Positions 23,889 to 25,756 of a stretch of DNA of 64,000 bases are shown here, one piece after another; position 1 is the first letter of the stretch; each line of letters opens with the position of its first letter. A program made the position numbers and the translations under genes. This DNA is from Limnothrix sp. BL-A-16 (lineage in GTDB: Bacteria > Cyanobacteriota > Cyanobacteriia > CACIAM-69d). The stretch is from NCBI GenBank assembly GCA_041937175.2, contig CP166615.1, positions 2,976,001 through 3,040,000 on the forward strand, written 5' to 3'. Under the pieces are notes generated by a model. It did no database searches and was not told the DNA's origin. It saw nothing but the letters and a program-made list of their open reading frames with translations.

Positions 23889-24076
23889 GAGGATGTCGTC
23901 ATTTCCATCGCCGTAGGGGTTGGGTCTCCCAACCCTAATCCGGGCGATCGCTACAACCCTGTTCACCCCTGGGAACACCCAAGATCACGGGAACTGGGCG
24001 AGGAGACCCCGCCCCTACGACTGATCGGTTGGGAGAACGAGATCATCAGAGTTTCAGGCGATCGGACGACAGGCCC
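23889..24076. mobile_element. MITE family A, copy 3 (different internal REP doublet; IS110 inserted at its right end)
   Basis: Left end GAGGATGTCGTCATTTCC and right end TTTCAGGCGATCGGACGACAGGCCC match copies 1 and 2. Interior GTAGGGGTTGGGTCTCCCAACCCTA ... GGGCGAGGAGACCCCGCCCCTAC. Confidence 0.78.
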
Positions 24077-24084
24077 TTGTATGT

Positions 24085-24297
24085 GGAAGGCGGTGGAGCA
24101 GGAAGGTTAAGCTCAGGCATAATCGACCCTCTCCCATCCGGTAGAGACTCTGGACAGGCCCTGAAGCTCCGAAGCTTGAGGCTTAGATTGAAGAGCCGAC
24201 CGGAACCCGCCTTCCCGGACACTGCCAGTAGACTGAACAGTATTCAGAGTGACCGCTTGAGCGCTGTCACCTCGGATCAAGCAAGGGTAGCACTGGG
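24085..24297 (+). ncRNA. Predicted IS110 bridge RNA
   Basis: Two stem-enclosed internal loops. Target loop: GACAGGCCCT (24153-62) and GGCTTAG (24180-86). Donor loop: ACAGTAT (24237-43) and GCAAG (24281-85). These match the element's left target flank and its end junction. Confidence 0.82.
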
Positions 24298-24332
24298 TCA
24301 GTGACCGTCCCTCTTTCTTGTCCACCCCAACC

Positions 24333-25346
24333 ATGACTAATCCAATCTATATTCCCCTGGGCATCGACATCAGCAAACACCACTTCGATGTTGCCCTCTG
24401 CAAAGCACCCTCGACCGCTCGCAGCAAAAGTGCCTTTCACACCAGCCAGTTTGCCAACAACGAAACCGGATTTCACGAATTACTCGCTTGGCTCGAACAA
24501 CACCAAGTCCACCACATTCATGCTTGCCTAGAAGCAACTAACATTTATGGTCATGAGTTGGCAGCCTTCCTGTATCAACGGGAGCAGCGGGTCAGCATTG
24601 TGAATCCTTCCCAAGTCAAGGGCTATGGGCAAAGTCGCCTGAAGCGCACCAAGAGTGACCAGGCGGATGCGGGAGTGATTGCCCAATTCTGTCGTGACCT
24701 GACTCCTCCCCTGTGGGAACCGTTACCGGAAGCCCTAGAGCAATTGCAGCAGCTTTCCCGCCGCGTGGAAGCGCTGATCTCGATGCGGACTGAGGAGAAA
24801 AATCGGTTGGACTCTTGCCGTAATCCCCACTTACAGACTGATCTACAAGCCCATATTGCCTATCTGTCGGAGCGGATTGATGACCTAAAAAAGCTTATGC
24901 GCGAGCATATTCGCGCCCATGAAGCCCTTGCTCATCAAAGCCAATTGCTCTGCTCGATTGTCGGCATTGCGGAAACCACCGCCACCAACTTGTTGGCGGA
25001 GATTGGTGTGATTCAGCGCTTTGCTTCCGCTAGACAATTTGCGGCTTTTGCAGGTCTCACTCCCCGAGAATTTATCTCGGGGACATCTGTTCGCGGCAAG
25101 ACTCGATTGTGCAAAATTGGTAATGGTCGGCTGCGAAAAGCCTTCTATTTTCCAGCCTTGTCAGCCTGTCGCTATTGTCCTGAGATTGCAGCATTTCGCA
25201 ACCGATTAGTCGCGGCGGGCAAAACACCCATGCAAGCCATTGGCGCTGTGATGCATAAGCTGGCCAGGATTGTTTTTGGGGTGCTGCGGCATGACAGACC
25301 GTTTGACCCCAGCCAACTGGCAGTCACCACAGAGCCTTGCTCTTAG
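24333..25346 (+). CDS. IS110 family transposase/recombinase
   Basis: RuvC-like [24 protein letters not shown]-terminal Tnp domain [18 protein letters not shown] (catalytic Ser), [10 protein letters not shown]. Confidence 0.96.
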
Positions 25347-25399
25347 GCTTTACATTTTGTCACTTTCAGACCCTTGCGCCTCCTCGGCGAACACAGTAT

Positions 25400-25756
25400 C
25401 TAGGATTCTTCGGGTTTCAGGGGCTTTTCCCGCCCATCTGGCCCTGGACGACCATTCCGGCTACCCAATTGACGGCGCACATCGTCGATCGCGTCATTCA
25501 ACTGAGCAATCTTGTCCTCCAGTCCTTGGCGCGCCGTTTCCATCCGGGCTTCACTGCTTTCGCTGGCGGCCAAACGAGGGCGACGGCGGGGACGCGGCGG
25601 CAGTTCGGCCCCGTCCCGATCGCCCTTCTCCGTCAGTTCTTCCAGTCCCTCATCGGAGTTGCGCGAGGCCAGGGCAGCCCCCACCAGGCCCCCCACAGCG
25701 CCCCCCAACAGGGCCCCCCAAAAAAATCCACTACCAAAACCCTCTCGGTTTGCCAT
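25400..25756 (-). CDS. Hypothetical protein (YtxH-like Gly-rich TM plus coiled coil)
   Basis: MANREGFGSGFFWGALLGGAVGGLVGAALASR...LEDKIAQLNDAIDDVRRQL. Its TAG stop overlaps the IS110 core. Confidence 0.8.
   Translation of the reverse strand: MANREGFGSGFFWGALLGGAVGGLVGAALASRNSDEGLEELTEKGDRDGAELPPRPRRRPRLAASESSEARMETARQGLEDKIAQLNDAIDDVRRQLGSRNGRPGPDGREKPLKPEES

Follow-up and report, generated by a model that had tools for sequence, protein, structure and literature searches.

The natural target of the insertion sequence (IS) IS621 of Escherichia coli is a multicopy palindromic repeat of the repetitive extragenic palindromic (REP) class, and Partridge and Hall are said to have reported in 2003 that IS4321 and IS5075 home to inverted repeats at the termini of transposons in the Tn21 family. 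The homing of IS110- and IS1111-group elements to multicopy repeats or transposon inverted repeats is already in print. The bridge RNA mechanism of IS110 recombinases was described in 2024 (PMC11208160, PMC11208158). The IS110-group elements ISPpu9 and ISPpu10 of Pseudomonas putida occupy one position in REP sequences or bacterial interspersed mosaic elements (BIMEs), as confirmed by insertions in a naive strain (PMC12288879), and about 900 insertions of IS4321 have been mentioned (PMC11187229). Here we analyze a 64,000-nucleotide (nt) stretch of contig CP166615.1 of the cyanobacterium Limnothrix sp. BL-A-16, hereafter the window, to which all positions without a contig prefix refer. Positions 24078 to 25401 of the window are very probably a recently active IS621-type element of the IS110 group, the bridge RNA guides of which match the ends of a resident miniature inverted-repeat transposable element (MITE).

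The element resembles IS621 in its homologous transposase with conserved catalytic positions, in the CT core at each end, and in a long noncoding left end that lies 5' of the transposase gene and contains a target loop and a donor loop, each with left and right guides, the one on the right of the donor loop being discontiguous. Both elements have a multicopy palindromic repeat as their natural target. It differs in its target (ACAGGCC-CT-AAGCC here, as opposed to the wild-type target ATCAGGCCTAC of IS621), in the length of its right guide (7 nt as opposed to 4), and in an extra hairpin at 24095-24134, inside the outer stem formed by 24085-93 and 24207-15. The host is a cyanobacterium, and instead of a REP sequence the element targets the point at which a MITE repeat meets its TA flank. 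Like ISPpu9 and ISPpu10, it is an IS110-group element that inserts at one position in multicopy repeats; those elements, however, have an AG core, repeats of the REP/BIME class, and the small RNA Ssr9, and their target is not a TA-flanked MITE. Like IS4321 and IS5075, it has a DEDD transposase and homes to terminal inverted repeats that belong to a different transposon family, but those IS1111-group elements have subterminal inverted repeats and a guide (seekRNA) downstream of the transposase gene, and the transposons that they target are large and autonomous, not MITEs. The protein is also homologous, by sequence match, to that of ISCro4 (PDB 9t56). A literature search of incomplete coverage, without supplementary target tables, turned up no published case in which a bridge RNA addresses the terminus of a TA-flanked MITE. 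What is new here is the placement of the CT core across the boundary between MITE terminus and TA flank; the mechanism itself is not new.

The element and its gene are as follows.

24078 to 25401, + strand: IS110-family insertion sequence, 1324 bp, with ends TGTATG... and ...ACAGTATCT, flanked by CT cores
24333 to 25346, + strand: transposase (bridge recombinase), 337 amino acids, identified by Pfam and PDB matches

The genome, 4.56 Mb in 2 contigs, contains four mutually 100% identical copies of the IS, located on contig 1 (C1) at positions 438683, 2154195, 3000076, and 3394390. The left flank is GACAGGCC-CT in all four copies, and the sequences past the right CT are AGGATTC, AGGCCTG, AAGCCCC, and AAGTCCC, giving a common target site of GACAGGCC-CT-A(A/G)G. 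These CT-bounded flanks set the limits of the IS at 24078 and 25401, and these limits are demonstrated, with core copies at 24076-77 (left) and 25400-01 (right). The termini are not inverted repeats, in keeping with the IS110 group. The empty site was observed directly: an 868-nt DNA contig from lake-metagenome run X12 joins 24075 to 25400, skipping the 1324 bp, with 2 ambiguous bases. It contains a single CT and no longer target duplication, again as in the IS110 group, and the insertion is therefore polymorphic in nature.

The strings and coordinates of a first-pass annotation of this DNA (stems, loop strands, left flank, the target at 7226-7239, and near matches to it) all proved correct on rereading, apart from its right end at 25405, which lies 4 nt too far since the right CT core puts the end at 25401. 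Its assignment of the locus to the IS110 family with an IS621-type bridge RNA agrees with the Pfam domains, the PDB match to IS621, and the consensus structure of the left end. Two side observations concern the insertions. On contig 1 the four copies share the + strand, though each MITE offers both orientations; at n = 4 this is not significant. In a contig from RNA-library run X15, the right flank (from 25400) is preceded by GACGACATGCC, an empty-site allele with a G-to-T change in the MITE end relative to the occupied allele.

Family membership is demonstrated at the level of the protein. The transposase matches PF01548 (DEDD_Tnp_IS110; E = 4.1e-29) and PF02371 (Transposase_20; E = 2.5e-24), and in the PDB it matches the IS621 transposase (8wt6; E = 6.5e-68) and ISCro4 (9t56; E = 9e-66). 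It thus has the DEDD/RuvC-like N-terminal domain and the C-terminal Tnp domain with a catalytic serine that are typical of the IS110 group. Residues D12, E67, D109, D112, and S249-G250 align opposite D11, E60, D102, D105, and S241-G242 of IS621 in the PDB alignment, positions that form the composite active site of that enzyme (PMC11208158). A protein search of 40 related genomes returned no close copy, the best match being a broken gene with 50% identity. A terminator-like hairpin on the + strand (25331-25351) starts in the last transposase codons, overlaps the stop codon at 25344-46, and lies within the right end of the IS. At that end, a hypothetical open reading frame (ORF) of 169 amino acids on the - strand (25400-25909) has a weak, sub-threshold glycine-zipper match. 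Its terminal TAG, reverse-complemented, is the CTA of 25400-02, made up of the core and the adjoining A from the TA flank; the stop is kept whether the site is occupied or empty.

The noncoding left end spans 255 nt (24078-24332) and is predicted to encode the following features.

24085 to 24310, + strand: predicted bridge RNA, from the consensus structure of homologous left ends, with both RNA ends approximate
24085 to 24093 and 24207 to 24215, + strand: outer stem, GGAAGGCGG and CCGCCTTCC, read from the sequence
24137 to 24204, + strand: target-binding loop module, with stems TCCGGT (24137-42)/ACCGGA (24199-204) and CTCT (24148-51)/AGAG (24192-95)
24164 to 24177, + strand: inner hairpin of the target loop, AAGCT (24164-68), loop CCGA, AGCTT (24173-77)
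24154 to 24162, + strand: left target guide ACAGGCCCT, with the same sequence as the left target's top strand and the core; the match reaches 10 nt when G at 24153 is included
24180 to 24186, + strand: right target guide GGCTTAG, complement of CT-AAGCC
24237 to 24244, + strand: left donor guide ACAGTATT, matching the IS right end ACAGTAT-C, the last position by a U-G wobble
24276 to 24285, + strand: right donor guide AT...GCAAG, which complements the left-end CT-TGTAT discontiguously, as read against the IS621 scheme

The RNAalifold consensus of four homologous left ends consists of two stem-loops with internal loops and includes 39 pairs, 7 of which have compensatory changes. By reading, the outer stem of the target loop also covaries, as AAGGA/TCCTT in homologous locus L021 and GCGGAG/CTCCGC in L023. 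The two strands of the target loop are GACAGGCCCT (24153-62) and GGCTTAG (24180-86), and the left flank of the insertion (24068-77) likewise reads GACAGGCCCT. By the pairing rules of PMC11208160, with the core included in every pairing, the left guide is identical to the left flank at 9 of 9 positions in all four genomic copies. The right guide matches 7 of 7 positions of the right flank in copy 3, 6 plus one wobble in copies 2 and 4, and 4 plus two wobbles in copy 1, the departures being mostly U-G or G-T wobbles. As expected of a bridge RNA, the target strands match the left target (for bottom-strand pairing) and the right target (for top-strand pairing), and the donor strands match the element's own ends. 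In IS621, the right donor guide pairs through A157-U158 and C162-G165, with a G161-T wobble and two U's flipped out (PMC11208158).

The assignment of this predicted RNA as a bridge RNA is secure by comparison. Its target loop would read GACAGGCC-CT-A(A/G)G, guiding the recombinase as in IS621, and its donor loop, with ACAGUAUU and AU...GCAAG, would recognize the element's own joined ends, ACAGTAT-CT-TGTAT.

The sequence so addressed is the end of a MITE, the anatomy of which was observed directly. It is 142 to 143 bp long (about 143 bp), with inverted repeats GGGCCTGTCGTC...GACGACAGGCCC and the central palindrome GGGGCTTAAGCCCC; among 29 full-length copies, 20 have TA on both sides, and the sequence beyond the TA varies. 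It has the hallmarks of a MITE, being short, noncoding, and multicopy, with terminal inverted repeats and a TA target-site duplication. The genome contains 146 and 164 of the two inverted-repeat ends (at 1 or fewer mismatches). The CT core is made up of the last C of the MITE inverted repeat and the T of the TA flank, and the specified site, GACAGGCC-CT-A(A/G)G, is found almost nowhere except at this boundary. Two MITE sites in the window bear on the insertion.

23889 to 24076: host MITE of the IS, a 188-bp variant with a degenerate left repeat GAGGATGTCGTC and a right repeat ending in GACGACAGGCCC, flanked by TA at 23887-88 and T at 24077
7226 to 7239, - strand (C1:2983239): unoccupied 14/14 target GACAGGCCCTAAGC at a MITE end, with the partner end at 7364-77

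The IS copy of the window lies at the right end of this 188-bp variant, and near matches to the target occur at 7364-77, 12743-54, and 12922-33. Genome-wide, GACAGGCCCT occurs 98 times and the 14-mer GACAGGCCCTAAGC occurs 34 times, as opposed to about 0.03 expected by chance (9.1 Mb, both strands, by our own arithmetic). Many MITE copies are flanked as ggggctTA...TAagcccc, and those copies are therefore nested in the palindrome of another copy; the full 15-mer GACAGGCC-CT-AAGCC arises because one MITE inserted in the TA of another's central GGGGCTTAAGCCCC palindrome. Thirty perfect 15-mer sites are unoccupied, and 8 further sites differ by one wobble. The MITE end motif is present 71 times in this genome, with 17 and 38 occurrences in its two congeners, a single one in another genus of the family, and none in the other 37 relatives.

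Three further observations touch these MITEs. The left flank of the host MITE, aacaaggggctTA, is half of the central palindrome of another MITE, and about 165 bp separate this host MITE from a tRNA gene on the - strand (23651-23724; Rfam, 59.7 bits). At C1:1639696 (- strand), outside the window, the sequence after a MITE end is CT-TGTATTGTATTTC, in which the initial five bases of the IS left end stand twice with no IS present; this may be due to chance (about 0.1 expected over about 90 sites) or may be a footprint.

An autonomous partner of the MITE was sought among inverted-repeat pairs 300 to 3000 bp apart. Six such pairs (five intervals, because two left ends share a right end) were recovered, and none bounds a transposon. 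The ORF scan covered the four longer intervals, all but the 301-bp pair, and the ORFs scanned there belonged to ordinary host gene families (DUF218, nitrite/sulphite reductase-like, ketoacyl synthase, phosphopantetheinyl transferase, and argininosuccinate synthase). The DDE_3 loci of the genome were considered as partners and rejected, their ends, ACAGCC(C/T)TT..., being unrelated to the MITE repeats.

C1:1247408, 1391492, and 513: three DDE_3 (IS630-type) loci, one with an internal TAG stop

Because no partner with the same repeats was found, the putative IS630/TA class of the MITE is drawn from the TA flank alone.

Insertions outside the genome occupy the same kind of site. A metagenome contig (locus L062) carries an IS that is 95.8% identical over 1324 bp (55 mismatches, no gaps), with the same left guide as here and a single change in the right guide. 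It is inserted at ...GACGACAGGCC-CT / CT-AAGCCCCTTG, an end of the same MITE family. In addition, a contig from RNA-library run X17 contains the IS right end, CTA, and then AACCCCCGTTGCC..., a site that is empty in this genome at C1:3085631 (- strand). All six insertion sites (4 genomic, L062, and X17) thus lie at GACAGGCC-CT-A and at MITE ends of this family. A further junction, CT-AAGCCCCTTG in run X12, would be the seventh but may be a chimeric graph path. Since the 4%-diverged L062 element sits at an end of the same family, the association between IS and MITE predates the four identical copies. The first-pass annotation had read the loop strands of the left end as specifying the element's own insertion site and the target as the terminal inverted repeat of a MITE plus its flanking T, and it had proposed collecting further IS copies with their flanks. 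The guides equal the flanks of all four genomic copies, the full-length MITE copies and their ends bear out the target, and the collected flanks followed the prediction at 6 of 6 sites.

The relationship between guide and flank was examined in homologues drawn from 23 loci on genome contigs and 32 on metagenome contigs. The loci analyzed are those in which a search for the motifs TTGTAT and GTATCT located an end: L021 to L029, L062, and 4 of 25 further metagenome loci scanned (L063, L065, L086, and L087), a fifth candidate, L068, having been dropped as apparently spurious. The left guides of L024 and L026 were extracted directly, the MAFFT columns being one base out of register. Matches of each left guide to its own left flank, over 9 nt, are as follows.

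This genome (4 copies) and L062: 9/9
L021: 8 plus one G-T wobble
L022: 9/9
L024 to L028: 9/9 in 5 of 5 copies
L029: 9/9
L063: 9/9
L065: 9/9
L086: 8/9
L087: 7/9
L023: 4/9 in register and 6/9 when slid by one base, a failure to match

When guides were compared with the flanks of other lineages, only 1 to 7 of 9 positions agreed. The left guide therefore covaries with the left flank in 7 of the 8 analyzable homologue lineages, with L023 as the exception, and in this respect both guide-flank identity and its covariation are demonstrated. Right guides match their right flanks at 6 of 6 available bases in L023, at 7 of 7 in L024, L025, L029, and L065, and at 4 plus three wobbles in L026. L029 carries ACGGTAT both in its donor guide and at its right end, where the others have ACAGTAT. 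The covariation between guide and target that the first-pass annotation had put forward as a check thus holds in seven lineages and fails in L023, and its notion of a retargeted recombinase fits homologues that carry other guides matching their own flanks.

Two of these homologues have unusual junctions. In L029 (Poribacteria), the left junction (at 1219) is GT and the right junction CT, and the left guide also has GT, such that the core copies differ. In L022 (Oscillatoriales), a 42-nt segment, AACGCACC-CT-TGTATGTAGGAGGGGTCGGAGGTGGAAGTGGA (target, core, and start of the left end), occurs twice in tandem at 1204-1290, possibly as a remnant of aberrant recombination or as an artifact of the assembly.

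Small inverted-repeat elements serve as targets in other lineages as well. For L021 and L022 (Geitlerinema/Oscillatoriales), the target is (R)AC(R)CACC-CT-AC, with 25 and 12 occurrences in the respective genomes, as opposed to 2 and 3 for controls. Those in the L021 genome are often arranged as inverted pairs with a spacing of 143 to 157 bp, and one such element has the ends GGGTGTGTT...AACACACCC, each adjoining TA. The target of the Abditibacterium loci (L024 to L028) has 38 occurrences, as opposed to 0 for the control, most of them in inverted pairs with a spacing of about 81 bp, and a partner repeat is present 75 to 88 nt upstream in 5 of 5 IS copies. The TA flank in these two lineages is partly built into the search, since the search patterns contained TAC after the repeat. 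No inverted-repeat partner was found within 400 nt upstream (at 2 or fewer mismatches) for L029, L063, L065, or L087; the same search was negative at this threshold for our element and L062, for which a left repeat exists with 3 mismatches. Insertion at the ends of small inverted-repeat elements is seen in three lineages that represent two phyla, namely this genome together with L062, L021/L022, and L024 to L028; it was not seen in four others.

With respect to expression of the predicted RNA, RNA-library contigs, which may contain DNA, cover the left end in three runs from two studies.

24074 to 24285: contig from run X16
24065 to 24522: contig from run X15, preceded by the flank of copies 2/4
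24093 to 24512: contig from run X17, preceded by adapter sequence

The adapter-adjoining start in X17 (24093) and the span of the X16 contig could hint at the ends of an RNA, but assembled contigs cannot show RNA ends, and IS stretches without cover in single RNA runs are uninformative. The RNA would probably be transcribed from a promoter rebuilt on a circular intermediate, for which one candidate can be read.

25374 to 25401, + strand: weak candidate promoter, TTGCGC (25374-79), 17 nt, then TATCT plus the T from 24078, formed only across the circular junction

By reading, TTGCGC or TTGCTT occurs at the same distance in L021 and L023.

Several results weigh against a functional bridge RNA aimed at MITE ends. 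With respect to transcription, the RNA-library cover could stem from DNA carry-over, no circular junction of right end and left end was seen in the four runs examined, a scan for sigma-70-like promoters in the integrated element returned 0 sites, and the junction candidate agrees with the consensus at only 7 of 12 positions. With respect to structure, a scan of 23500-26000 against Rfam 15 (E ≤ 1) returned the tRNA and a chance match to a small RNA and no bridge-RNA family. The minimum-free-energy fold of 24076-24333 (-89.1 kcal/mol, as opposed to -84.6 ± 4.9 kcal/mol for shuffled sequences; z = -0.93) pairs parts of both guide strands with each other; because its energy is no better than that of shuffles, the left-end structure rests on the comparison of homologues. 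With respect to targeting, of roughly 38 sites that match perfectly or with wobbles only, just 4 carry the IS, the copy 1 site (AGGAT) retains one true mismatch to the 7-nt right guide, and the left guide of L023 does not match its flank.

These results bear on how the match between guide and MITE should be explained. It is conceivable, though on balance unlikely, that the bridge RNA is used but that its match to the MITE is not adaptive, such that MITE ends are only the abundant matches at hand and any 'safe harbour' is a by-product. The IS protein was not found by protein search in two congeners and five other genomes of the same family, so the element could be a recent arrival, and L029, L063, L065, and L087 lack an inverted-repeat partner near their targets. 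Yet the MITE end motif is essentially confined to the genus while the guide matches it over 10 nt, the L062 variant also lies at an end of this family, making the association older, and both the nearest homologues (L021/L022) and L024 to L028 target the ends of small inverted-repeat elements of their own hosts.

Still less probable is a choice of site by the protein or by a DNA hairpin of the MITE repeat, in which the complementarity of the left end would be incidental or auxiliary. Every observed site is indeed at the end of a palindromic element, and ISPpu10 is reported to need a structural match in addition to base pairing (10.64898/2026.03.19.712850, a 2026 preprint), but guides covary with unrelated targets in 7 of 8 lineages, and in vitro the specificity of IS621 both requires its RNA and needs nothing more (PMC11208160). 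That the internal GACAGGCCCT, which shares 10 identical nt with the MITE terminus, is a captured MITE-end fragment rather than a guide is scarcely credible: no further MITE sequence surrounds it, the opposite side of this internal loop carries the complementary right guide, and in other lineages the homologous alignment column holds their own flank sequence, this covariation of the left guide with the flank being what excludes the captured fragment. An IS621-type element with guides directed at MITE ends remains the reading that we favor.

Given this reading, it is reasonable to suppose that MITE ends may serve as a harmless, self-renewing landing pad for the IS, or 'safe harbour'. A broader proposal, which we advance tentatively and hold to be somewhat less probable than its opposite, is that a clade of IS621-like bridge recombinases specializes in parasitizing nonautonomous transposons, with the left guide tracking the end of the resident element and the CT core falling on its last C and the adjoining T. 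If so, every transposition of a MITE would make two new landing sites for the IS, and the guide would be rewritten when the IS enters a new host or when the MITE family turns over.

In this locus, the two target strands of a predicted bridge RNA can be read against four insertions, a population-level empty site, two outside insertions, and about 30 perfect unoccupied sites. They provide a natural 9-plus-7-nt guide design with tolerated wobble positions, which is useful for the engineering of bridge recombinases. A cyanobacterial bridge-RNA element uses the terminus of another mobile element as its address, offering a testable model of one mobile element parasitizing another.

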